Program-made: the position numbers and the translations under genes
The notes under the pieces: generated by a model
What the model was told of the DNA's origin: nothing
The model's input: only the letters and a program-made list of their open reading frames with translations
The model's database searches: none
Part shown: positions 9,931 through 61,965 of the stretch, piece after piece
How the letters are laid out: each line of letters begins with the position of its first letter
Position numbering within the stretch: position 1 is the first letter of the stretch
Source: a virus
Length of the DNA stretch: 64,000 nucleotides
IMG/VR virus record: IMGVR_UViG_3300045974_000760
Location: 1 to 64,000 of that record
Reading direction: 5' to 3' (one strand)

Positions 9931-10001
9931 AGGGTACTACCCTCCGTGACACGAGACGTTCAGTAGCAGCAACCGCACAACCTCTCCGGAGAATCGATCA
10001 C

Positions 10002-13066: not shown

Positions 13067-14191
13067 ATGGAAACAAGTGCCCAGCACCTGAACGAGCTCT
13101 TCTCGCAGAAGATTGCGTCGTCGGAATCGCGTGAGAAGTTCGCCGAAGCGGCGGGTGATTTCATCCGCGACCGTCTTCGTGAAGTTTCGTTCGCTCGCCA
13201 GATCTTGCCGCCACAGCAAGTGACCCGAGCGGACTGCCAGGTCTCCGTGAATCACGACACGCTCGTGAAGATCATCGAGGTCGAGCCTCGGTCGCGCGGT
13301 ATGTCGATGTCGTTCCGCGGTCAGCCGACCACGCGCTACCTGCGCGCCGGCCGTGCCGAGACGGCGTTCCACACCGTGAGCACCGAGCGGTACCAGAAGT
13401 ACGAGCAAGAGCTGCTCGCCTACACGATGCCGATCACCAAGGTGGTCGAGGACAACAGCGTGAAGGACCTGCAGGAGGTTGAGGACCGTCTCTTCCTCAT
13501 CAACATCGAGCTCGCGGTTCAGAGCCTCCAGACGGAAGCCAACGGCGGCGTCGCGACGGAGCTGGCGTACTCGACGCTCAACGGGGGCACTTGTGTGGAG
13601 TTCTCGGTGTGCAAGGGCGAGTTGGCCCGCACCGCCGGCAGCGACAGCAAGACCGTGTGGCCGCTTCAGCGCCCGGACATCGTCCGCCTGAAGAAGAGCA
13701 TCGACGGCAACCGCCTCCGTGGCGAGCGCCTGCTCATGACCGAAGTCGACTGGGACGACATCCTGCAATGGACGGTCTCGGACTTCGGCGACAAGCTCCA
13801 GTCGGAGACCACGGTCGACGGGTACAAGTACAACACCCTCCTCGGCATCCCGTACATCCGTACGATCAAGACCGACGTCTTGAAGCCGGGCAACCTGTAC
13901 ATCTTCACGGACCCGAAGTTCTTCGGCCGGTTCTACGTCCTGAACCAGGTCAAGTTCTACATCGACAAGGTTGCGAACCTCCTCACGTTCCAAGCGTGGG
14001 AAGACATCGCGATGGCGATTGTGAACGTGGCCGCAGTCCGCAAGCTCGAGCTCTACTCGGGCAACGCCAACCCCGGTGCCGGTTCGCAGACGCTCATCGC
14101 GAACTTCCTGCCGAACGATGAGGACGCCCTCGGCGCTCTCAACAACCGCGTCGACAGCGGCATCAACTTCCCTGCCATTGCTTCGTTCTGA
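13067..14191 (+). CDS. Major capsid protein (HK97 fold inferred)
   Basis: 374 aa; FIRDRLREVSFARQILPP; strongly biased codons; AAGGA RBS; strong terminator downstream; position in the head module. Confidence 0.8.
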   Translation: METSAQHLNELFSQKIASSESREKFAEAAGDFIRDRLREVSFARQILPPQQVTRADCQVSVNHDTLVKIIEVEPRSRGMSMSFRGQPTTRYLRAGRAETAFHTVSTERYQKYEQELLAYTMPITKVVEDNSVKDLQEVEDRLFLINIELAVQSLQTEANGGVATELAYSTLNGGTCVEFSVCKGELARTAGSDSKTVWPLQRPDIVRLKKSIDGNRLRGERLLMTEVDWDDILQWTVSDFGDKLQSETTVDGYKYNTLLGIPYIRTIKTDVLKPGNLYIFTDPKFFGRFYVLNQVKFYIDKVANLLTFQAWEDIAMAIVNVAAVRKLELYSGNANPGAGSQTLIANFLPNDEDALGALNNRVDSGINFPAIASF

Positions 14192-41166: not shown

Positions 41167-41201
41167 GGGGCTAAGAAAAAGGAGCCCGGGGGGAGCTCCT
41201 T
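41167..41201 (-). terminator. Cassette-end element: hairpin + TTTTTCTTAGCCCC
   Basis: AAGGAGC/GCTCCTT stem, then T-tract and the conserved TAGCCCC on the minus strand. Confidence 0.7.
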
Positions 41202-41205
41202 CTTC

Positions 41206-41880
41206 TCATGGTGCGAGGCAGGTGACGTTCGCGCCAGCACCTGATACCGGAATGCCATTGCCGTCGTAGTCGACGAACGTGCACATCCAGCCCTGCACCC
41301 CGCTGCTGCCGGCAGGGCCAAACGATGTAATGCGCCTCGTCGATCCGTTGGCGTAGGTGAATGCGCAGCCTCCCGTCAACGCGATATCACCGGGGTCGCA
41401 CAGCGCGGTTATTATCGTCATCGCGTTCCGCGGCAACACCTGATTCACGGCGCTGCGTAGGTACGTCTGCGACGTCGACAAAGTGCCCGCCGGACCGACA
41501 GGACCAACTGCGCCTGTTGGCCCCGCTACGCCCGCAGGGCCTGCAGGCCCTTGTGCGCCCTGCGGGCCTTGTGCACCTGGGGAGCCCGGCGTTCCTTGCG
41601 CGCCCGTCTGCCCTGTTGGCCCCTGCACGCCTTGAGGGCCTGCTGCGCCGGGCTCCCCCGCAATACCTTGAGGCCCCGCAGGCCCCAGAGCTCCAACCGG
41701 GCCCTGGTCACCCTTCACACCCGGCTCGCCCTGTGGCCCTGCCGCGCCAGCAGGTCCGGTTGACCCAGGTGTACCTGGAACGCCAGCATCGCCCACGAGA
41801 CCGTTGGCTCCGGGATCTCCTGCATCACCGCCGCCACAACCAACCGCAAACATCATTGCTACAACGAATAGATACCTCAT
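41206..41880 (-). CDS. Collagen-like lipoprotein
   Basis: Signal peptide with lipobox FAVG-C; about 39 uninterrupted Gly-X-Y triplets; Cys-containing C-terminal domain. Confidence 0.8.
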
Positions 41881-42155
41881 CGCGCTTCCTCTTTCTCGAT
41901 GGCGAGCGCCACCGTTTTGATCGCCTCAGCCGGGGGAATGCCGGCGGCGGTTAGCCGCGTGTACATTTGGCCCGCGTCGAAACCCTTCGCGGACTCCGCA
42001 GGCCATTCGACTTCTACAACTTCACTTGACGTGCGCTCTACGCGCACTCGAGCGTTACCCTGTTGCGGCGGGGCGGGATGGGAGCCGCTACTGCCCCCCT
42101 TGTTTCCCCCCACCGCGTACAACCCAAGCCCAACAAGAAGTGGGAGTAGGAACAT
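41877..42155 (-). CDS. Small membrane-anchored protein
   Basis: AAGGAG RBS; hydrophobic N-terminus; ATGA coupling to the collagen gene. Confidence 0.6.
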
Positions 42156-42169
42156 GGTTTTTTTCTCCT

Positions 42170-42188
42170 TCAAGTTCCTTATCCCCGG
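42170..42188 (-). promoter_or_regulatory. Conserved promoter-like motif CCGGGGATAAG-GAAC-TTGA
   Basis: One of 9 copies of CGG(G)NATAAG-N4-YTGA, all upstream of co-oriented genes. Confidence 0.7.
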
Positions 42189-42202
42189 TTCCCCCTACCG
42201 AT

Positions 42203-42637
42203 TCAGGGCCGGCAAAGCACGTAGCTCATCGGCGTCAACGCCTCGAGCCTGAAGCCCGCGCCCTTGTACAGCTTCACCGCAGTCTCGTTGCTCTTCTCTA
42301 CCTCGAGCTGAACACTCTGCGCGCCCAGCTTCTCGGCCTCGTCGATGAGCTCGCCAATCACCGCCTTGCCATAGCCTCTGCCCCGCAAGAACGGCATGAT
42401 GCCCAAGTACAGGATATCGAAGATCTCCTCCTTCCAGCTCACAACCGCGTAGCCCACAGGAGTACCCCCAGGCCCCGTCAATGCGAGGTACAACCTCCCC
42501 GAGCCGTTGCCGAGGTGATGCTCAAGCGTCGGGACGTTCAACATCGTGCCGGGAAGGACTGACTCATTCCACGCAACGATGTAATCGAGAAGCCCGGGGG
42601 TTGTCTGCTCTACCAACTGGATGTACACGTTGTGCAT
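42203..42637 (-). CDS. GNAT (RimI-like) N-acetyltransferase
   Basis: LGIMPFLRGRGYGKAVI; LEVEKSNETAVKLYKGAGF; GGAG RBS. Confidence 0.88.
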   Translation of the reverse strand: MHNVYIQLVEQTTPGLLDYIVAWNESVLPGTMLNVPTLEHHLGNGSGRLYLALTGPGGTPVGYAVVSWKEEIFDILYLGIMPFLRGRGYGKAVIGELIDEAEKLGAQSVQLEVEKSNETAVKLYKGAGFRLEALTPMSYVLCRP

Positions 42638-42818
42638 GGTCTCAGTCTCCGTTGACACGTCTGATGGCGCCCCCACTGTAGAACAACAAGTCGATGCCGA
42701 CATCCAAGCATTCGAGGAATGGACTCAGGAGAAGCTCCAGTTCGAAAAGCTGACGAAGGCAGAGTGGGCAATCATCAAGACCTTCTGCGCTTTCAAGCTC
42801 GGTGTCGCAAAGGTGTAG
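42636..42818 (+). CDS. Small helical protein divergent from the GNAT gene
   Basis: DIQAFEEWTQEKLQFEKLTKAEWAIIKTF; start shares CATG with the GNAT start. Confidence 0.5.
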   Translation: MVSVSVDTSDGAPTVEQQVDADIQAFEEWTQEKLQFEKLTKAEWAIIKTFCAFKLGVAKV

Positions 42819-42850
42819 CTAAGAAAAGCGAGTACTACCTGCTTCTCTTC
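42817..42850 (-). terminator. Cassette-end element (CTTTTCTTAGCT)
   Basis: Imperfect stem plus conserved motif after gene 42853-43185. Confidence 0.55.
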
Positions 42851-42852
42851 TT

Positions 42853-43185
42853 TCACACGTCCCAGATTGCGCCCCTCCGCGCTCGCTCCGCGAGGAGCGC
42901 GTCGTGCCGCTCCTGGATCTTCGCCGCGAACGGCACGTCGGAGTAGGGGGAGCACACGCCCGTCTCCTGCGCGAGCTTCTGGTGCGCCACCAAGAGGAGC
43001 CAGAGGTGCACATGCACCAGCTGGCTCTTCCCGCTCGCCCACGGGTGCAGCGTTACGCACACTTCGTGTTCTTCGGTCATCTCCGATACGACCAACCCCA
43101 TCCGGTGCGCGGTGCCGTCTGGACCACAGAAGATCGCTGCACACTGAACCAAAAACCCGAGGTCTACATTGTCCATGCTCGTCAT
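42853..43185 (-). CDS. Hypothetical cassette protein
   Basis: Flanked by the promoter and end motifs; GAAAGG RBS. Confidence 0.6.
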   Translation of the reverse strand: MTSMDNVDLGFLVQCAAIFCGPDGTAHRMGLVVSEMTEEHEVCVTLHPWASGKSQLVHVHLWLLLVAHQKLAQETGVCSPYSDVPFAAKIQERHDALLAERARRGAIWDV

Positions 43186-43215
43186 GTTTCGTGCCTTTCA
43201 GGAAGGAAGGGTCCT

Positions 43216-43233
43216 TCAGTATTCTTATGCCGG
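43216..43233 (-). promoter_or_regulatory. Conserved motif CCGGCATAAG-AATA-CTGA
   Basis: Repeat family member. Confidence 0.7.
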
Positions 43234-43260
43234 TTTACCCCCTCGGATTTAGGGTAAACA

Positions 43261-43299
43261 GGGGCTAAGAAAGGCGCGTACTGGCCCCCTCCTTTCTTA
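43261..43299 (-). terminator. Cassette-end element (CCTTTCTTAGCCCC)
   Basis: TAAGAAAGG/CCTTTCTTA stem overlapping the stop codon. Confidence 0.6.
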
Positions 43300-43728
43300 C
43301 ATACGTAGCCGTCTCGCCAGGCCGAAGAAGCCCCGGGGCACAGGGCGGTCGAACTCGCCCTTCGCGCTGAACCCGATGGCGGTCACCGTCTCATCGTCGG
43401 GCCACAGCAAGACGACCTGCGGACCCTTGCTGGGGTTGAGCCGTATCGCCCGCTTGATGGCGAGGATGTACAACTCCCCCCGCCACAGGGGGCGCAGCAT
43501 CAGACTTACGCCCGGGCACGCGGCGTAGTCCGCCTCGGCATTCTCGACCTCTTCCTCCTCTGTCCAGGCCGTATCATTACCCCCTGGACCAAAGACCCCC
43601 TTCGCTCCCACAACCAGGGTCGGGGTCGTCTCATCCAGGACACCGCCGCGAAGGGCGTCCCGGATACGTACCTTGCGCTGTCCCCAATCGGCACCAACGG
43701 CCCGTGCGGCTACCTCGTCTGCGCGCAT
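43297..43728 (-). CDS. Hypothetical cassette protein
   Basis: AAGGAGG RBS before MRADEVAA. Confidence 0.6.
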   Translation of the reverse strand: MRADEVAARAVGADWGQRKVRIRDALRGGVLDETTPTLVVGAKGVFGPGGNDTAWTEEEEVENAEADYAACPGVSLMLRPLWRGELYILAIKRAIRLNPSKGPQVVLLWPDDETVTAIGFSAKGEFDRPVPRGFFGLARRLRM

Positions 43729-43883
43729 GTTGCCCTCCTTGTTGCCTCGAGGACGCGTTGCTGGTGGTCGTAGCCCACCTCGCGCACTCGCCACCAAGTA
43801 CCCGCATCCCGCCCTACCTGCTCCGCGAACATCCGCTCAAGCAAGGCCCACTCGAATCTCTCGGACTCCCACATCTGTGGCAT
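43710..43883 (-). CDS. 57-aa small protein MPQMWESERF..., missing from the ORF track
   Basis: Translated by hand; GGGAG RBS; directly after the promoter motif. Confidence 0.5.
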   Translation of the reverse strand: MPQMWESERFEWALLERMFAEQVGRDAGTWWRVREVGYDHQQRVLEATRRATCAQTR

Positions 43884-43895
43884 GGCATTCTCCCT

Positions 43896-43913
43896 TCGGC
43901 TTTCTTATCCCCG
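43896..43913 (-). promoter_or_regulatory. Conserved motif CGGGGATAAG-AAAG-CCGA
   Basis: Repeat family member. Confidence 0.65.
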
Positions 43914-43952
43914 AGAAGCCTCACAGATTGTGGAAGGTACATCCCCAGACAT

Positions 43953-43999
43953 AGGGCTAGAAAAGAAGGGGAGCCTGCGCATCGCTACCCTTACTTTTC
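43953..43999 (-). terminator. Cassette-end element (CTTTTCTAGCCCT)
   Basis: Imperfect hairpin plus motif downstream of 44031. Confidence 0.55.
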
Positions 44000-44030
44000 C
44001 GTCTAAGCCGCCCGCCCGTCGGCGGACAGC

Positions 44031-44429
44031 TCAGACAAGACCGCGGCTGACCCCATCGATCAGCGCCACTTCGAGCCCGGCCGTTGCCGCGGCTGCCTCT
44101 ACCGCTGCCGCTGCGAGGGCGCTCCGGCGCCTGACCCAGTAGATCACGCCTCCGACCACGAGCACCGTGGCGACCGACCCGGCGGTGAGCGCAATCCAGT
44201 TGCGCTTACCAAACGCAAGGACCCCGTGGTCCTTGTTCCAGGCTGCAATCAGGCCTTTGATAGCCTCTTTGGCCTCCGGCGTGTTCTTGCCCACCTCCTT
44301 CTCGATGCGTTCGACGGCGTCCTTCATGGACACCTTCTCCGCGTCGACAGGTACTTCGCCCGGTGCAACTGCCGGGGCTGAGGTTGCGTTTGAAACGTTG
44401 ACTGCGGATGCTGCTGCGGGCGTGGTCAT
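44031..44429 (-). CDS. Single-pass membrane protein
   Basis: GGAG RBS; TM segment WIALTAGSVATVLVVGGVIYWV followed by RRR. Confidence 0.65.
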   Translation of the reverse strand: MTTPAAASAVNVSNATSAPAVAPGEVPVDAEKVSMKDAVERIEKEVGKNTPEAKEAIKGLIAAWNKDHGVLAFGKRNWIALTAGSVATVLVVGGVIYWVRRRSALAAAAVEAAAATAGLEVALIDGVSRGLV

Positions 44430-44460
44430 TGAAAACTCCAAAGCGGGGGGTTGTGGCCGC

Positions 44461-44520
44461 TCAGTAATCTTATACCCGGATTTGATGGTATTTTTAGCCC
44501 CTGCGCGCCTCCGGGTATAA
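44461..44520. promoter_or_regulatory. Back-to-back promoter motifs forming an 11-bp inverted repeat around a TTTTTAGCCCC element
   Basis: TTATACCCGGA (44470-44480) / TCCGGGTATAA (44510-44520); the minus copy reads CCGGGTATAAG-ATTA-CTGA. Confidence 0.65.
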
Positions 44521-44524
44521 CGGC

Positions 44525-44605
44525 GCGCTGGGACGTAGGGGTACTCTGCCAGTACGATGAGATTGCTCATTCGTACTGATGTACCCCCCAATACGGGGGA
44601 CTACA
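44525..44605 (+). ncRNA. Candidate structured small RNA (or long terminator)
   Basis: Nested stems GGGGTAC/GTACCCC, CAGTACGA/TCGTACTG and TGAG/CTCA downstream of an ORF-less promoter motif. Confidence 0.35.
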
Positions 44606-44606
44606 A

Positions 44607-44852
44607 CTACAACTTGTCGTTGTAGTCGTGCCCCTTGATCCTGGCACCCGGGACGGGCCCTTTAGCGGGCTCCTCGACCGGGTTCCGGGCTGCCAGGACC
44701 ACGTCCTGGTAATCCGCACGGTCACACTCGTAGGTGACCGTGTACTGCGCCTTCCCACGAAGGCGGAGGATTTCCGCCTCCGCCCACTCGTTGTACCTCT
44801 TAGCTCCGTAGCCAATGAGGTCCACGAGCAGACCGCCACCGAATCCCAGCAT
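44607..44852 (-). CDS. Small hypothetical cassette protein
   Basis: AAAGGT RBS; promoter motif upstream. Confidence 0.55.
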   Translation of the reverse strand: MLGFGGGLLVDLIGYGAKRYNEWAEAEILRLRGKAQYTVTYECDRADYQDVVLAARNPVEEPAKGPVPGARIKGHDYNDKL

Positions 44853-44887
44853 GGTGTGACCTTTCTGAGAGGGGTAAATGAGGGCTC

Positions 44888-44905
44888 TCAGTACTCTTAT
44901 TCCGG
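44888..44905 (-). promoter_or_regulatory. Conserved motif CCGGAATAAG-AGTA-CTGA
   Basis: Repeat family member. Confidence 0.7.
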
Positions 44906-44952
44906 TTTTGGTCCTCTAAATACCCCCTTTGGGGCAGGAATGTGGAAGGTAC

Positions 44953-44998
44953 AAATGGGGGCAAAAGGGGCCTAAAACGCCTAAAATGGGGGGTAAAA
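44953..44998. repeat. Five helically phased A-tracts (curved DNA)
   Basis: A3-A4 runs start at 44953, 44963, 44974, 44983 and 44995 (mean spacing 10.5 bp). Confidence 0.6.
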
Positions 44999-45017
44999 CC
45001 CGGTATAAGTATATTGA
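44999..45017 (+). promoter_or_regulatory. Conserved motif CCCGGTATAAG-TATA-TTGA; the last A is the A of the ATG
   Basis: Repeat family member. Confidence 0.72.
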
Positions 45018-45499
45018 TGACACCCTCTACCAACGACGTTGTGCGTAACAATGCAGTGAACCCTGTTATCAAGTCGGACGACTTGACGACGGAAGAAAGG
45101 GAAATGATTCGACAGAAGCGGTTGCAGGAATCGGAAAAGGCAAAGGCGGTTGAATTCTACCTGCAGATCAAGCGGCTGGAAGAACAGATGGGGCTCTCCA
45201 TCAAGACGACAAGCTGCGATGCGCGGTTGATCAAAGACCCGCAGCTGAAAGCCACAAGGCTGGAAGCCGAGCACCAGGCACAGGTCGACTCGCTAAAGGC
45301 CCAGCTAGCGCAAGTGCGCGCGCTCAGCGAACAGCGTGCAGCTGCGGCTTCGTTGTTGGCGCTGGCGGGTGGCCTGATGTACGGGGCCCTCATCGGTAAG
45401 GCAGCAGGGCAGGTGACCGGCGCACAGGAAGGCGTCGAAGCGGCGATCAAGGCAGCGGGCCCATTGGGCAAGCTGCTTCGGCGCCGGTTGGAAAAGTAG
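45017..45499 (+). CDS. Coiled-coil protein with C-terminal hydrophobic Gly-rich segment
   Basis: Likely leaderless start; AASLLALAGGLMYGALIG. Confidence 0.6.
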   Translation: MTPSTNDVVRNNAVNPVIKSDDLTTEEREMIRQKRLQESEKAKAVEFYLQIKRLEEQMGLSIKTTSCDARLIKDPQLKATRLEAEHQAQVDSLKAQLAQVRALSEQRAAAASLLALAGGLMYGALIGKAAGQVTGAQEGVEAAIKAAGPLGKLLRRRLEK

Positions 45500-45510
45500 T
45501 AAGAAGTAGG

Positions 45511-45536
45511 ACCGGATGACCCCGGTTTTTTTAGCC
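45511..45536 (+). terminator. Cassette-end element: ACCGG/CCGGT hairpin + TTTTTTAGCC
   Basis: Directly after the stop codon at 45499. Confidence 0.65.
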
Positions 45537-45564
45537 TCATGTCTTGTGAACTATTCGCCCATCC

Positions 45565-45582
45565 CCGGGATAAGAGAGCTGG
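45565..45582 (+). promoter_or_regulatory. Conserved motif CCGGGATAAG-AGAG-CTGG
   Basis: Repeat family member. Confidence 0.65.
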
Positions 45583-45617
45583 CCGGACTTCACTGGCCCA
45601 TTGCCGGGGACATTCAA

Positions 45618-46196
45618 ATGCAAGTATTCCAGTTGACCGAGACGGTACGACAAGGCGTGGACGTGGTGTTCGGGGTGTTCGGGGAGACCGACGCAGTACT
45701 GCCTGTCGGGGATGCGGCGGTACCTCTGACCGAAGAGGCGATCCAGACCTTGTTGTGGCGCAACACTTACACCCTGACCGAGGCAGAGCTCGAGACGGCG
45801 GGGGCGCTGACCGCGTACAAGCGGAACCGGACGCCTACCCCATCCGACAAGGAGGCCGTTGTGAAGGTCTCCTTCGCCCCTGGTGAGGGGGGCTTCAGCG
45901 AGGTGACTGAGACCGCGTTCGACCTCGTCGAGAAGGCGGGGCGAATCTACCGGATGTACCACCCCCTCAGTCCGGACTCACGTTGCGTGCGGGTGTTGGC
46001 GAAGGGGGTCCATCGCTCGGGCGGGATGGCGTGGAATGAATACCTTTTGAGGGTCCGCCCATCAGATTCACCGGTCCTGCGTTGTTATAGGACAGGTGAG
46101 ACTGAAGGCGCGCCGCGAGAGGTGGAGTGGGGATGGGACGGTGTCAGGTGGCGCCGCTTCACCATCTCAAAGCCGAGGGCTTGCGTGCGCGGGTAA
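45618..46196 (+). CDS. Hypothetical cassette protein
   Basis: GGGGA RBS before MQVFQLTE. Confidence 0.6.
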   Translation: MQVFQLTETVRQGVDVVFGVFGETDAVLPVGDAAVPLTEEAIQTLLWRNTYTLTEAELETAGALTAYKRNRTPTPSDKEAVVKVSFAPGEGGFSEVTETAFDLVEKAGRIYRMYHPLSPDSRCVRVLAKGVHRSGGMAWNEYLLRVRPSDSPVLRCYRTGETEGAPREVEWGWDGVRWRRFTISKPRACVRG

Positions 46197-46209
46197 ATAC
46201 GTCCCCGTT

Positions 46210-46228
46210 CCGGGGATAAGGCTATTGA
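46210..46228 (+). promoter_or_regulatory. Conserved motif CCGGGGATAAG-GCTA-TTGA; the last A is the A of the ATG
   Basis: Repeat family member. Confidence 0.72.
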
Positions 46229-46842
46229 TGACCACCACTCACTGCGATTCGCCTCGCCCCGAAACCACAACCGCAGCTGGAGAACAGATTGGCATCCCGG
46301 AGAGGGATGACATTACGCCGGCCATCTTTGCGCTCAATCCGCCGTTTTACGCGCTCTTGCATCAGCTACCCTCCGACTCGAAGCGCGCAGGACTCGCGCT
46401 CCTGCTTCTCGAGCCGGCGGTGTCGTACTTCGTCCTGCAGCGGTTCGTAGCGCTCGGCATACTGCGGCTCCTTCGGCCGGAGCTGTTGGGCGCCATCGAC
46501 GAGTACCTCGACTCTCTGTCGCTCGAAGCCGTTGAGGTGCTGACGATGATGACCATGAACACGGTCACCGACTTGTACGAGGCGCTGCCGCGCTGGGGGT
46601 TCGAGAGCCCCATATCTCAGCGGGCGTGGTGCGCACGGAGGCTGGAGCTCGAGTGGTTGGCGGCGATGTTCGATGTCGACACCTCGGAGCTGGATCAGCT
46701 TGCCGAGGGTAAGATGACCCCTGGCTACGGGGACGCGCTCGACGTGTACGAGGAGTCGACACGTCTTGTTGTGCTTGCGGAGTTCGAGTTGGCCGACATG
46801 TTCAAAAGGCCGACTCGCTACTTCTACAACGAGTGCGGCTGA
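46228..46842 (+). CDS. Hypothetical helical cassette protein
   Basis: In-frame ATG at the end of the motif; end element follows. Confidence 0.6.
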   Translation: MTTTHCDSPRPETTTAAGEQIGIPERDDITPAIFALNPPFYALLHQLPSDSKRAGLALLLLEPAVSYFVLQRFVALGILRLLRPELLGAIDEYLDSLSLEAVEVLTMMTMNTVTDLYEALPRWGFESPISQRAWCARRLELEWLAAMFDVDTSELDQLAEGKMTPGYGDALDVYEESTRLVVLAEFELADMFKRPTRYFYNECG

Positions 46843-46847
46843 GCTGA

Positions 46848-46883
46848 GAGAAGTGCGTGCTGCCCCGCACTTTTCTTAGCCCC
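46848..46883 (+). terminator. Cassette-end element: GAGAAGTGCG/CGCACTTTTC hairpin + TTAGCCCC
   Basis: Directly after the stop codon at 46842. Confidence 0.7.
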
Positions 46884-46905
46884 GTGTTACCCTCGGAGAG
46901 CTCCC

Positions 46906-55495: not shown

Positions 55496-55525
55496 TTTCT
55501 AGCCCCTTGTTGTCGGTGCTACAGT
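55496..55525 (+). promoter_or_regulatory. TTTCTAGCCCC element followed by extended -10-like TGCTACAGT
   Basis: Intergenic; ATG 7 nt after the -10 element. Confidence 0.45.
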
Positions 55526-57417: not shown

Positions 57418-58081
57418 GACCTTCTTCGATTGCCTGCGCAAGCTCGCTGCCGCTACCGTCCCCACGGCAGCTGAAGCGCGTGATGCATTGAAGCGCATCA
57501 ACGACCTCGAGGCGACCAAGCCCACTGCAGAGCAGATGCTGCGGTACGGCACGCTGGGCGGTGCTAGCGGCCTCGGTATCGGCGCTGTCACCGATATGAT
57601 GCGCGGCAAGATTCCCTACAAGCCCACCGACGCAGCAGGTGGCCTCCTCAAGGGGCGCGCCGCACTCGTGCACGTGGGCCGCAACGTGGCAGCTGACTTT
57701 GCCAAGGGCGCGCTCGGTGGCGGTGCGGTTCCTCTTCTTCGTCACCACGTGGACCGTGATGTCGAGATGCAGCGCCTCCGTGCCTACGTCGAGTCCCGCC
57801 CCAAGAAGGCGGTTGTCGCGCCCCCGCCTGAAGCACCTCCTCCACCCGTTCCTCAGATGCAACCCAACCTGATGGGCGGGTTGTCAACGGGAGCAGAGGC
57901 TTCTCCATCTCTCGGCGGGATGAAGGTGGCCGGTGTCCCTCTCACACCCGCTGGCCGACTTGCTCACTCATCCCGTATGGGCAAGACGCCGAGCTCTACG
58001 AACTCGGGACCCTCCATCGCAGACCAGGTCAAACCCATCGGGTTTGGGCGACCACTTCCGGGCGCAACAAAAGGTACCTGA
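57410..58081 (+). CDS. Glycine-zipper K-x-A protein
   Basis: FFDCLRKLAA, MKVAG; GTLGGASGLGIG, GALGGGAV. Confidence 0.6.
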   Translation: MAETFFDCLRKLAAATVPTAAEARDALKRINDLEATKPTAEQMLRYGTLGGASGLGIGAVTDMMRGKIPYKPTDAAGGLLKGRAALVHVGRNVAADFAKGALGGGAVPLLRHHVDRDVEMQRLRAYVESRPKKAVVAPPPEAPPPPVPQMQPNLMGGLSTGAEASPSLGGMKVAGVPLTPAGRLAHSSRMGKTPSSTNSGPSIADQVKPIGFGRPLPGATKGT

Positions 58082-58097
58082 AATAAGCCCGCGTTGT

Positions 58098-58114
58098 CGG
58101 GATAAGGATGCTGA
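58098..58114 (+). promoter_or_regulatory. Conserved motif CGGGATAAG-GATG-CTGA, outside the island
   Basis: Ninth copy, 2 nt before ATG 58117. Confidence 0.6.
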
Positions 58115-58116
58115 CC

Positions 58117-59121
58117 ATGCACGACCTCAAAGCGTATAGCGCGCGAATGCGCAAAGTGGCCCAAGCCATGGAAACCCCGACACCGGACTTCGCCCGAGTG
58201 CCACTCTACAAGGACCCCGCGGGTTACTCCCCGCCGGGTGATGGAGACCGCGGGCACAACGAGGGCGCCATCTGGCAAGCCTCGCTCGAAGGACGTGACC
58301 AACAGCTGCGCGCGCTCTTCTCGAATCTCGAGCGGGCAGCGCAAGCAGACCAAGCGCTCTTCGACTTGCTGTTCTCGACGAAGAACCGAAACTCTCGTGC
58401 GGCCACTCTTCGAAAGGTTGCGGCGCATTACGGCGTCAAGACAGCCGACCTGACGGACGCCGACTTGGTGTCTCACATGACGGCGGTCCAGGGCGAGAAA
58501 CCTTTCGTTCACCCCAACATGCTGCGCGCAGGCCTCGAGCGGGAGGCGGCCTCGCACAACATGCCGATCGAGCAGTACATTCAAGCACAGCACCGAGGGC
58601 AGCTTCCCGGGCAGCAGCGTGCCGCAAGCATGCACACGCTCATCACGGACCCAACGGCGCCCATCGCCTCAACGGCCGCGCTCGACGGGCATGCGCCAAT
58701 GCCTCGCCCCGCAACGCTCGGTAAGCCGGTACCGCCCCCGCTCCCAAGTCGACCAGCACCTCCTCCACCCCCCATGTCGCTCTCAAGCAATGCCGGTGGC
58801 GGTACGGCGAAGGTCAACGTAGTGCCCGGTGGCGGCGCACCACTTCCACAGGCATCGATGCCTGCTGGCGTACCTGCGTTCAACGCGCCTGGGCCTGTTC
58901 CAGTCCCGGGGTCCGCCACGGCACGTGGTATGGCCGCTCCGGCAGGTCTCGCGAAGAAGGTGGCGCCTCTCTCGCTCCCAGCCTCGATGGTGGAATCCCG
59001 CGCAGCACGTGCCGCGGCTTCTGCGCCCGGTGCCCTGGCCAGCAAGATTCAACGTATGGCGGGCAAGGTCATTCACGCCTCGCACTACAACACTCTCGCG
59101 GAGCAGTTGGCCGCTCTCTGA
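58117..59121 (+). CDS. Pro/Ala-rich K-x-A protein
   Basis: RKVAQ, RKVAA, VKTAD. Confidence 0.55.
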   Translation: MHDLKAYSARMRKVAQAMETPTPDFARVPLYKDPAGYSPPGDGDRGHNEGAIWQASLEGRDQQLRALFSNLERAAQADQALFDLLFSTKNRNSRAATLRKVAAHYGVKTADLTDADLVSHMTAVQGEKPFVHPNMLRAGLEREAASHNMPIEQYIQAQHRGQLPGQQRAASMHTLITDPTAPIASTAALDGHAPMPRPATLGKPVPPPLPSRPAPPPPPMSLSSNAGGGTAKVNVVPGGGAPLPQASMPAGVPAFNAPGPVPVPGSATARGMAAPAGLAKKVAPLSLPASMVESRAARAAASAPGALASKIQRMAGKVIHASHYNTLAEQLAAL

Positions 59122-59133
59122 AAGGAAGCAATC

Positions 59134-61020
59134 ATGACGAAGGAGGAGCTGAAGTTTGGAGCTCCGCCAGCCAAAGCCGGGGCTCAATCCCCGGCTTTGA
59201 CGTATATGGCGGACAAGGCCTCACGCGCTAGCCCGAGCGCACGTACCGAACGTGAGCTGCAGATGTGGCACACGTGGAATGACAGCGGGCGAAAGCCCGA
59301 ACACCTCGAGCCCCTGCTCAAAGCCTACGAGCCCATCTTCTCTCAGAAGGTGCGGCAGTGGTCGGCTGGTGCAGCGGGCGTGAATCCCATGTTCATGCGC
59401 GCGCAGGTCGAGAAGCACTTCATCGACGCCGTGGGGAAGTTCGACCCCAGCCGTGGCTATGCGCTTGCGACTCACGTCGACAAGCCGATGAACAAGGCAC
59501 AGAGGGCGCGCAACACGGTGCAAAACGCGGCCTACGTCTCCGAGGAGACAGCCCGCACTATCGCGCCCATCCAGAACGCCACCGCCGAGCTGCACGCAGA
59601 GCTCGGCCGAATGCCTACCCCGCAAGAGATTGCTACCAGGTCGGGGCTTGGTCTTCGCGTCATCAAGCGACATCAGCTCGAGATTCGCAAAGACGTCGCT
59701 GCCTCGGCGTACGAGAACGACCCCACCGAGAACCCGATGAATCGGGCTCACGATATCGCTCCCCTACTTCGGGAGCAGTTCCAGCAGCCCGGCTTCCAGC
59801 CTCACGTACTACACGTGTTTGACCACACGTTCGGGCTGAATGGAGCTCCGACAGACCTGAGCGGCGGGCAGCTCGCCAAGAAGCTCGGCGTCTCACCCTC
59901 GGCCATCTCTCAAGCGAAGAGCCTCATTCTCGCTGAGACAAAGAAGTACCTGTTATACCCACCCGCAGTACATCGAGGCCCGTCACTCATAGCGAGAGGC
60001 GGGCCTCTCTCATTTCCAAAGGCACAACAAGACATGGCTCACGAACTCGCAATCGACTCCCTCGGCGCGCAAATGTTGTACGCAGGTGAAACGCCTTGGC
60101 ATGGACTGGGCACGAAGATCGAGAAGCACGTCACCAGTCGCGAAGCGTTGGCAATCTGCCGCGCGGACTACGCAGTGAAGTGCGGGCAGCTCTTCACCTC
60201 GAAGTCGGTGCCCGTCAACGCACAGTACATCTACAGGGAGGACGCAGAGGGGGTGCAGACCATCCTGGGGCACCACGTTGGGATGGACTACACGCCGCTG
60301 CAGAACGTGGATGCATTCACGTGGTTTGACCCGTTCCTGGAGAGCGGGATGGCCGCTATCGAAGCGGCGGGCGTACTGCGTGATGGCGCACGTGTGTGGG
60401 TACTGGCTCGCATCGAAGGTGACCCGCTTGAGATCTTGCCGGGGGATGTGGTGGTGAAGCGCTTGCTGCTGAGCAACGACCACAGCGGCATGCAGGCGGC
60501 TCGAGTGGGGCTGACCCCGATTCGCACCATTTGTGCAAACACGCTTGCGATGGCGTACGCGGACAAGAGGTCCCAGCTCTTGCGTGTCAAGCACACGCGT
60601 AACATCAAGGACGCACTCGCGGTGGTGCGGGAGACCATTGACGTGGTGAACAACGAGTTCAAGGCCACGGCGGAGCAGTACCGCCGTCTCACCACGATGG
60701 GTGTGGTGGAGAAGGACATCGAGAAGTACGTGAAGCTGGTGTTCGCTCCCGGCACCGCGCCCGATGCACCGGATGAGCAGCTGGTGGGCAGCTCAGCGGG
60801 CAAGCGTGTGTGGGAGCAGATCAAGCCGCTGCTCGAGGTGGGGCGAGGTGCCTCCATCCCCGGAGTACGCGGTACGATGTGGTCTGCATTCAACGCAGTG
60901 GTTGAGTACGTTGACCACAGCCGTGGACGTAGCCGTGAGTCGCGCCTGGAGTCGCAGTGGTTCAAGGATGGCGCGGCCCTGACCTCCCGCGCGCTCAAGT
61001 TGGCGCTGCAGGCTGCCTGA
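59134..61020 (+). CDS. Sigma70-family (FliA/WhiG-like) phage sigma factor, in frame with a downstream DUF932 domain
   Basis: AAGGA RBS; region 2 FIDAVGKFDPSRGYALATHV; region 3 ELHAELGRMPTPQEIA; region 4 HTH LAKKLGVSPSAISQ; no stop before DUF932. Confidence 0.75.
   Translation: MTKEELKFGAPPAKAGAQSPALTYMADKASRASPSARTERELQMWHTWNDSGRKPEHLEPLLKAYEPIFSQKVRQWSAGAAGVNPMFMRAQVEKHFIDAVGKFDPSRGYALATHVDKPMNKAQRARNTVQNAAYVSEETARTIAPIQNATAELHAELGRMPTPQEIATRSGLGLRVIKRHQLEIRKDVAASAYENDPTENPMNRAHDIAPLLREQFQQPGFQPHVLHVFDHTFGLNGAPTDLSGGQLAKKLGVSPSAISQAKSLILAETKKYLLYPPAVHRGPSLIARGGPLSFPKAQQDMAHELAIDSLGAQMLYAGETPWHGLGTKIEKHVTSREALAICRADYAVKCGQLFTSKSVPVNAQYIYREDAEGVQTILGHHVGMDYTPLQNVDAFTWFDPFLESGMAAIEAAGVLRDGARVWVLARIEGDPLEILPGDVVVKRLLLSNDHSGMQAARVGLTPIRTICANTLAMAYADKRSQLLRVKHTRNIKDALAVVRETIDVVNNEFKATAEQYRRLTTMGVVEKDIEKYVKLVFAPGTAPDAPDEQLVGSSAGKRVWEQIKPLLEVGRGASIPGVRGTMWSAFNAVVEYVDHSRGRSRESRLESQWFKDGAALTSRALKLALQAA
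60034..61020 (+). CDS. DUF932 (phage/plasmid LGT) family protein, probably with its own start
   Basis: MAHE...YAGETPWHGLG; YTPLQNVDAF; GVLRDGARVWVLA; LLLSNDHSG; TPIRTICANTL; GTMWSAFNAVVEYVDH. Confidence 0.85.
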   Translation: MAHELAIDSLGAQMLYAGETPWHGLGTKIEKHVTSREALAICRADYAVKCGQLFTSKSVPVNAQYIYREDAEGVQTILGHHVGMDYTPLQNVDAFTWFDPFLESGMAAIEAAGVLRDGARVWVLARIEGDPLEILPGDVVVKRLLLSNDHSGMQAARVGLTPIRTICANTLAMAYADKRSQLLRVKHTRNIKDALAVVRETIDVVNNEFKATAEQYRRLTTMGVVEKDIEKYVKLVFAPGTAPDAPDEQLVGSSAGKRVWEQIKPLLEVGRGASIPGVRGTMWSAFNAVVEYVDHSRGRSRESRLESQWFKDGAALTSRALKLALQAA

Positions 61021-61929: not shown

Positions 61930-61965
61930 TTGCTTTTCTTAGCCCCTCGAAGGATATCTACGGCC

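Follow-up and report, generated by a model that had tools for sequence, protein, structure and literature searches.

Phage genes that carry their own transcription signals have been described in more than one form. Morons, reportedly set out by Juhala and Hendrix in 2000, are said to be autonomous promoter-gene-terminator insertions in lambdoid phages, and phage sigma factors with promoters of their own are known from SPO1 (gp28 and gp34) and T4 (gp55). In T4-like phages, promoter-early stem-loop (PeSL) cassettes occupy hyperplastic regions (Arbiol et al., 2010, PMC2839356; Comeau et al., 2014, PMC4122927). Here we analyze a window of 64,000 nucleotides, the first 64 kb of a 143,216-bp phage contig in IMG/VR (record IMGVR_UViG_3300045974_000760), which holds between positions 41167 and 46883 an island of short gene units set off by recurrent motifs. 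This island, whose genomic position is fixed, is probably a region of hypervariable accessory gene content composed of autonomous transcription units whose signals are a sigma-type promoter, here called class I, and a terminator with a conserved tail.

Autonomous promoter-gene-terminator units arranged in a plastic region are, as a layout, already well known from T4-like phages and morons. As in the PeSL regions, small composite terminator/promoter modules lie between small, mostly orphan genes, the variable region sits between conserved core blocks, and gene content differs among relatives. The differences lie in signals and lineage. PeSL promoters are strong early promoters of the host sigma70 type, whereas those of the island are non-canonical (GGnATAAG) and probably depend on a phage sigma factor; the lineage is unrelated, with its own multisubunit polymerase and tailed terminators; and motif-mediated recombination has been shown for PeSLs, whereas only unit-level reordering is seen here. 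Like morons, the island includes single genes with their own promoter and terminator that would be expressed independently of their neighbors, but morons are isolated and use host-type signals, while the island is an array at one locus with clade-specific signals.

The contig has about 61% G+C and an estimated completeness of 77%, and the gene calls behind the intergenic and gene-start counts below are crude, with 93% of the contig coding. Pfam and PHROGs searches annotated very few of its proteins, the large neighbors of the island included. We compared this contig (G000) with two relative genomes, G001, which is complete, and G002, and with L-numbered loci of further relatives. A scan of IMG/VR with a single protein returned no close relatives; an alignment scan found 29 loci, all at about 40-45% protein identity, and a metagenome scan found one locus, L063, which at 56% protein identity is the closest. 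The DNA of the available relatives is either at least 99.7% or about 67% identical, with none between 70 and 99%. Among 185,579 species genomes scanned with an alignment of the big gene beside the island, neither a relative nor a host was identified, and the sole similarity in a DNA search of a phage collection was a 129-nt stretch with 72% identity in a mycobacteriophage.

The eight start-motif copies that an earlier note on this DNA had placed in the island, and the ninth outside it, are all present. When copies are aligned on ATAAG, a second element (CCTGAAT, CCTAAAT, CCTGAAAT) appears exactly 13 bp before (C/G)GG and 17 bp before the N-ATAAG hexamer. The class I promoter has two parts: a -35 element of the form C-T-(G/A)-A-A-(A)-T (CTGAAAT-like) and, 13 bp on, an extended -10 of the form (C/G)GG-N-ATAAG(A)A, with a hexamer-to-hexamer spacer of 17 bp. 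We pooled 143 sites that match GGNATAAG from 23 sequences (this contig, the two relative genomes and 20 island loci). Across these sites an AAA block stands at a fixed 15 nt upstream of GG, GGNATAAG is followed by AA, and TG(A/G)AGG occurs 4 to 9 nt past ATAAG.

The genome-wide scan that the note had proposed found 22 copies of GGNATAAG in the contig, against 2 of the reversed pattern, and 16 of the 22 fall outside called genes. A gene start on the same strand lies within 80 nt of 13 sites in this contig, 22 in G001 and 8 in G002, and the distance from ATAAG to the start codon is 4 to 48 nt, mostly 15 to 43. Six relatives also carry the pattern above its reversed control, with 8 to 18 copies per genome versus 0 to 1 (18 versus 1 and 14 versus 1, for example), and in one relative, G006, the core has shifted to the variant GGAGATAAG. 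Class I sites thus comprise two conserved elements at fixed spacing, upstream of genes and co-oriented with them. They do not have the housekeeping -10 (TAnnnT, with A at -11 and T at -7): the hexamer N-A-T-A-A-G keeps A-11 and has G at -7, a base present in every site by selection as the sites were picked by the pattern, and no TAnnnT alternative lies within them. The sites in the window are as follows.

42171..42206 (core 42178-42186), minus strand: class I promoter, -35 CTGAATC, core GGGGATAAG, predicted start near 42171; would drive 41877-42155 and 41206-41880.
43217..43252 (core 43224-43232), minus strand: class I promoter, -35 CTAAATC, core CGGCATAAG; would drive 42853-43185.
43897..43932 (core 43904-43912), minus strand: class I promoter, weak -35 CACAATC, core GGGGATAAG; would drive 43710-43883 and 43297-43728.
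44462..44497 (core 44469-44477), minus strand: class I promoter, -35 CTAAAAA, core GGGTATAAG; would drive 44031-44429.
44889..44924 (core 44896-44904), minus strand: class I promoter, core CGGAATAAG; would drive 44607-44852; back to back with the plus-strand promoter at 44981.
44981..45016 (core 45001-45009), plus strand: class I promoter, -35 CTAAAAT, core CGGTATAAG; predicted start at, or 1 nt before, the ATG at 45017 (leaderless).
45546..45581 (core 45566-45574), plus strand: class I promoter, core CGGGATAAG; would drive 45618-46196.
46192..46227 (core 46212-46220), plus strand: class I promoter, -35 GGTAAAT overlapping the previous stop codon, core GGGGATAAG; predicted leaderless start, ATG at 46228.
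58078..58113 (core 58098-58106), plus strand: class I promoter outside the island, -35 CTGAAAT, core CGGGATAAG, 4 nt before the ATG at 58117; heads the operon of a sigma factor gene.

Judged by this geometry, the start motif is the -10 and start-site half of a two-part, sigma-type promoter. The predicted start of transcription is the G of YTG, about 7 nt past the -10, given the conserved TG at +6/+7 past ATAAG, and the 'N4-YTGA' of the original motif is therefore the predicted start site. The start would fall directly on a Shine-Dalgarno sequence or an ATG. Messages from the units at 45001, 46212 and 58098 would be leaderless, with the predicted start on the ATG or 1 to 4 nt before it, and those of the other class I units are predicted to begin at the Shine-Dalgarno sequence. 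A looser analogy is offered by the SAS element (GGGATAGGAGCCC, 13 bp) of cluster K mycobacteriophages, whose function is still unproven (PMC3203893; PMC12699233). It too is an asymmetric repeat containing GGGATA, present in 11 to 19 copies, co-oriented with genes and limited to non-structural regions; unlike class I sites, which stand 4 to 48 nt from the start codon and have a fixed -35, SAS includes the Shine-Dalgarno sequence, sits no more than a few nt from the start codon and has no fixed -35, and the two consensus sequences differ.

The end motif, by its layout, is the U-tract of an intrinsic terminator followed by a conserved terminator-distal tail, TAGC-Y-N-C. With at most two mismatches, TTTTCTTAGCCCC has nine matches in the window versus 0.61 expected, a number that none of 100 shuffles reached; one of them (43900-43912, plus strand) is no terminator tail but the promoter core at 43904-43912 read on the other strand. 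A looser intergenic scan gives about 18 terminator-like copies across the contig. The end motif reported earlier stands, but not every copy does: the one at 44491 forms no hairpin (z 0.08) and is actually the -35 (CTAAAAA) of the minus-strand promoter at 44477, and the one at 55496 gave no hairpin on folding. The copy at 61934 has a weak hairpin (z -1.45).

We also searched without reference to the tail, for a hairpin followed by a T-rich stretch, in the three genomes and 20 loci (about 20 distinct relatives). TAGC begins 3 to 13 nt past the stem in 47 of 184 such sites (26%), compared with 3.7% of all T-rich hexamers, which bears out the claim that sequence is conserved beyond the U-tract. 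The logo reads T-tract, TAGC, Y, N, C, with nothing conserved further across the clade. The tail reads TAGCCCC in this genome, G001 and G002 have TAGCTAC or TAGCCTC, and the stems and loops before it are mutually unrelated in sequence; it is therefore under selection rather than left over from a duplication. Intrinsic terminators carry no sequence requirement past the U-tract, and we know of none among those of cellular-type multisubunit polymerases; here TAGC-Y-N-C is conserved at that place, a concrete and testable oddity of termination. The island terminators are listed below.

41167..41208, minus strand: intrinsic terminator at a convergent junction, 16-bp extended stem, U-tract, tail TTAGCCCC; -23.1 kcal/mol, z -5.8.
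42815..42849, minus strand: weak hairpin, U-tract, tail TTAGCTAC, after 42853-43185; z -1.2.
43261..43294, minus strand: weak hairpin, U-tract, tail TTAGCCCC, after 43297-43728; z -0.9.
43953..44000, minus strand: terminator with a one-base-shorter tail TCTAGCCCT, after 44031-44429; -18 kcal/mol, z -2.0 (moderate).
45508..45538, plus strand: short hairpin, T7, tail TAGCCTC, after 45017-45499; weak (z within -0.9 to -1.2).
46843..46883, plus strand: strong terminator, tail TTAGCCCC, after 46228-46842; -23.8 kcal/mol, z -6.3; abuts the next promoter (46884).

A G+C-rich hairpin and U-tract downstream of a gene are clear at 41167, 46871 and 43953 and weak at 42815, 43261 and 45526. The position of the tail is fixed solely relative to the U-tract, the distance from TAGC to the following promoter core ranging from 26 to 48 nt here and from 14 to 38 nt in relatives; some tails stand where genes converge, with no promoter after them (41167; genome position 133563). 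Our best guess is that the tail would help termination in a sequence-specific way or serve as a binding site for a factor.

Other roles for the tail were considered and rejected. The variable distance to the core and the tails at convergent ends speak against a promoter part (an UP element or -35). Pairing with a mirrored arm before the hairpin would require the four bases to be paired, yet of 47 minimum-energy folds only 9 have all four paired and 19 have none. As a class II -10 (the second promoter class, described below), TAGCCT fits TAnnnT and is once the -10 (L045), but the common TAGCCC and TAGCTA do not fit. Masking of a downstream GGAGGCTA in read-through RNA by TAGCCTCC acting as an anti-Shine-Dalgarno sequence could apply to some G001 units and is not general, TAGCTAC and TAGCCCC being unpaired. 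Nor are tails exclusive to class I units, as some close class II units, on a strict filter that leaves few sites.

Two observations concern the sequence around the tail. In about 6 of 18 copies in this genome (window 41167, minus; 43953, minus; 45526, plus; genome 66703, 87430 and 94390, all plus), it extends in the same register as RTGTCT (TAGCYNY-RTGTCT), and L038 and G002 have TGGATC or ATGATC near the equivalent place. In the G001 island (L024:7780-9010), some TAGCCTCC tails are complementary to the downstream ribosome-binding region GGAGGC(TA).

The island is bounded by conserved sequence. Its flanks are collinear with G001 and G002, on the left from 31.8 to 40.3 kb and on the right from a 1213-aa gene onward, and most genes between them have no homolog in either genome. 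Arrays of units with one or two genes each occupy this locus in G001, G002 and about 20 further relatives; the promoter there is the same, the tailed terminator often is too, and in most relatives all units are directed away from the big gene. The comparison of relatives for gain, loss and inversion, called for earlier, thus found content mostly unrelated and shared families reordered or reoriented: the GNAT gene with its small divergent partner, a collagen-like family, f18 and f24 recur in an order and orientation that vary between genomes. Relatives that have family f18 carry it on the strand opposite to the flanks, L063 being the sole exception, and in this genome the f18-like gene and two neighbors are inverted. 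In L063 the whole island is inverted and co-directional with the big gene, and it contains a homolog of a small gene that in this genome lies at 72533-72712. The genes of the island are these.

41206..41880, minus strand: collagen-repeat protein with a lipoprotein-type signal (a hydrophobic stretch, then GC), family f19, at the far end of the island.
41877..42155, minus strand: 92-aa orphan with a hydrophobic N-terminus.
42203..42637, minus strand: GNAT acetyltransferase, family f12, without a class I promoter.
42621..42818, plus strand: small gene of 65 aa, family f10, in head-to-head overlap of 17 nt with the GNAT gene.
42853-43185, 43297-43728, 43710-43883, 44031-44429 and 44607-44852, minus strand: five small genes without family matches.
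45017-45499, 45618-46196 and 46228-46842, plus strand: three units, the middle gene a distant f18 homolog.

The C-terminal, non-collagen part of the collagen-repeat protein is common to relatives (conserved in G001), and the gene sits elsewhere within their islands. We conclude that the island is a hotspot of turnover and rearrangement whose quantum seems to be the unit. Genes could be gained, lost, moved and inverted without loss of expression, and turnover among relatives would follow because every unit carries its own signals. The arrangement is looser than the 'strict grammar' once ascribed to it, since the GNAT gene has no class I promoter and the units 44607-44852 and 45618-46196 have no tailed terminator. 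Likewise, the description of the genes as unrelated orphans, many membrane-associated, holds in that about 4 of 12 have hydrophobic anchors, but one is a GNAT protein and one a collagen-like protein of lipoprotein type. The accessory genes that turn over at this hotspot probably serve host interaction.

A second class of promoters, class II, follows a different consensus, (G)TGnTAnnnT, an extended -10 without a clear -35, and lies 6 to 13 nt, often exactly 6, before start codons, a spacing that predicts leaderless mRNAs. This genome has 8 copies, 6 of them intergenic and several before other genes. The copy before the 1213-aa gene is kept in nearly all relatives (in L034-L062, just before position 10001), and class II or TAnnnT promoters also precede large conserved operons. 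The features outside the island that matter here are the following.

46884..46893, plus strand: class II promoter GTGTTACCCT (extended -10, TGnTAnnnT) before the conserved 1213-aa gene.
55516-55525 in the window, and 101823-101832 and 131598-131607 in the genome: further class II sites.
59134..59949, plus strand: phage sigma70-family factor (regions 2-4), the candidate reader of class I.

Pfam region 3 is found in all 13 members of this sigma family, and the family profile best matches group 1 SigA/HrdB structures over regions 2 to 4 (E 5e-17), while the best single-sequence NCBIfam match, to FliA/WhiG, is weak (E 2.8e-5). The sigma-28 (FliA/WhiG) consensus is TAAA-N15-GCCGATAA. It resembles class I in an A-rich -35 and a long, G/C-flanked -10 ending in GATAA, with 18 nt from A-block to GATAA against 17 here; it differs in the CGA core of GCCGATAA, for which class I has G-N-A with a variable N, and in that the family profile favors SigA/HrdB. 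In the window a 628-aa frame (59134-61020) joins the sigma factor to a DUF932 domain across one TTA; with 248 to 300 aa, other sigma homologs have lengths that fit two separate proteins.

The search for a phage RNA polymerase, suggested in the earlier note, led to a fused beta-beta' gene in G001 (2162 aa; L017:7048-13536, minus strand) and G002 (2114 aa; 123376-129720, minus strand), with Rpb2 and Rpb1 domains and the NADFDGD motif. In all six near-complete relatives tested, one such polymerase (2114 to 2200 aa) occurs with one sigma homolog. A survey of jumbo phages describes polymerase-encoding groups without a sigma factor and sigma-encoding groups without a polymerase (PMC7824862); the clade thus joins a fused multisubunit RNA polymerase to a sigma70-family factor, a pairing that the survey did not find. 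By features alone, it resembles the mReC clade of Caudovirales, uncultivated large tailed phages with a deep-branching multisubunit RNA polymerase, beta and beta' homologs and NADFDGD (Weinheimer and Aylward, 2020, PMC7481178), a paper in which the words promoter, sigma factor and terminator each have 0 occurrences. As in SPO1, whose switch is mentioned in PMC13401047, and in T4, a phage-specific consensus stands before many units and a sigma gene is present in the same genome; the sigma factors of those phages redirect the host core enzyme, whereas this clade also has its fused polymerase.

Upstream of the polymerase gene, both G001 (13537-13643) and G002 (about 129721-129870) have TTGCnn-N18-TACGCT, which looks like an ordinary housekeeping-type promoter and suggests early expression of the polymerase by the host. 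Canonical promoters thus coexist with class I in the same genomes, and the host housekeeping sigma therefore most likely reads those, class I being of another kind. The reader of class I would be the sigma factor that the phage itself encodes, probably acting with the fused polymerase, and the canonical TAnnnT (class II) promoters would be read by host polymerase. The class I promoter on the sigma operon would imply positive feedback, primed by read-through from class II promoters.

That the phage sigma factor reads class I is probable on these grounds, and a number of points weigh against it and against the wider account of the signals. Class I is assigned to the phage sigma by exclusion and because the two co-occur within a single clade. 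The polymerase gene was sought on this contig without a match; by synteny, however, the contig ends flank the roughly 33-kb region that holds the gene in G001, and the missing part covers that region. The sigma gene is itself behind a class I promoter (58098), so that a bootstrap is needed; transcripts running through from class II promoters (46884 and 55516) might supply it. The genes that class I would drive (pentapeptide-repeat proteins, GNAT, small orphans) resemble typical early genes, and in most phages such genes are expressed by host polymerase. Class II also precedes structural-looking genes, which blurs the role of the phage polymerase. Of the six island terminators, three have folds no more stable than shuffled sequence, and class I start sites, 3' ends and timing are all predictions; the 'early' label attached to the system in the note is not established.

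These points bear most directly on a reading in which class I promoters are early promoters for host RNA polymerase and a host sigma factor, and the sigma and polymerase of the phage are for other promoters used later, perhaps those of class II. Class I is sigma70-like in having a -35, a -10 and a 17-bp hexamer spacing, the genes behind it are accessory or takeover-like, its presence on the sigma operon is simplest if a pre-existing factor of the host reads it, and an unusual host sigma might be that factor. We nevertheless think this rather unlikely: the selected class I sites (picked by pattern) all have G where the near-universal housekeeping T-7 stands, canonical TAnnnT promoters coexist with them in the same genomes, even before the phage polymerase gene, and in G006 the core shifts to GGAGATAAG while class II remains canonical. 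A more ambitious proposal takes promoter and tailed terminator as the two cis-signals of a self-contained phage transcription system, made up of the fused polymerase and the bacterial-type sigma, in which TAGC-Y-N-C would be part of sequence-specific termination by that enzyme or a site for a phage termination or antitermination factor; this we hold to be speculative and unlikely. Much less probable is the idea that a single phage factor recognizes both motifs as near-inverted repeats. The likeness that prompted it is real in this genome, where the reversed tail GGGGCTAAGA differs by one base from GGGGATAAGA and the 10-mers are indeed alike, but it is lost in relatives and the units are not bracketed by true inverted repeats. 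There the reverse complement of the TAGCTAC and TAGCCTC tails is unlike GGNATAAG, and the reversed tails (GTAGCTAAAA, GGAGGCTAAAA) share with the promoter only an A-rich TAA stretch derived from the U-tract. The reversed tail also matches the -35 (CTAAAAT) about as well as the -10, tail-promoter spacing is variable (about 14 to 48 nt from TAGC to core), and tails stand at convergent ends (41167, genome 133563) without a promoter. We regard the resemblance as weak, mostly specific to this genome and incidental; promoter and terminator would be separate signals, adjacent merely through the tight packing of units. What stands from the earlier account is that both motifs are transcription signals, one with promoter geometry and the other with a hairpin and U-tract.

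Two proposals involve recombination. In the first, which would add to the preferred explanation and does not compete with it, recombination between terminator/promoter modules might drive the gain, loss, inversion and transfer of units, as in PeSL cassettes, a tentative possibility for which there is precedent (PMC2839356, PMC4122927). Composite terminator-promoter junctions recur between units, units are reordered and inverted among relatives, and the homolog of the 72533-72712 gene lies inside the L063 island; the modules, though, share just 8 to 13 conserved bases with unrelated spacers, short for homologous exchange, and no island breakpoint could be mapped because relatives of intermediate identity were not found. 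An integron-like array, with a site-specific recombinase acting at the motifs, accounts for variable gene content at a fixed locus but is scarcely credible. The suggested recombinase search found neither tyrosine (PF00589) nor serine (PF00239) recombinases in this contig, the complete G001 or G002, with positive controls in 14 and 12 reference genomes. Integron cassettes lack promoters, depend on a common one in front of the array and each end in an imperfect inverted-repeat site; here most units have a promoter to themselves, the element at unit ends is a terminator whose stem sequences vary, and the motifs act as promoter and terminator. Of the cassette array first proposed, what survives is the hotspot of turnover and rearrangement at a fixed locus.

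A limited literature search did not find these promoter and terminator signals described. They give an uncultivated phage clade, with genomes of roughly 130-190 kb, its first candidate consensus for promoter and terminator, enable operon maps and class predictions there and mark a conserved accessory-gene hotspot.

Some further observations concern individual genes. The divergent pair of GNAT gene and 65-aa partner is adjacent in several relatives and may be a functional pair. After 44607-44852, the interval 44431-44606 holds a C5/G6 hairpin, a hairpin with a 13-bp stem and a GC hairpin with CCGGGTATAAC (plus strand), which lacks an open reading frame; this may be what a rearrangement left behind, or else a small RNA. 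Two pentapeptide-repeat proteins, at genome positions 78952-79746 and 80167-80949, each lie behind a class I promoter and may be DNA mimics or anti-host factors.

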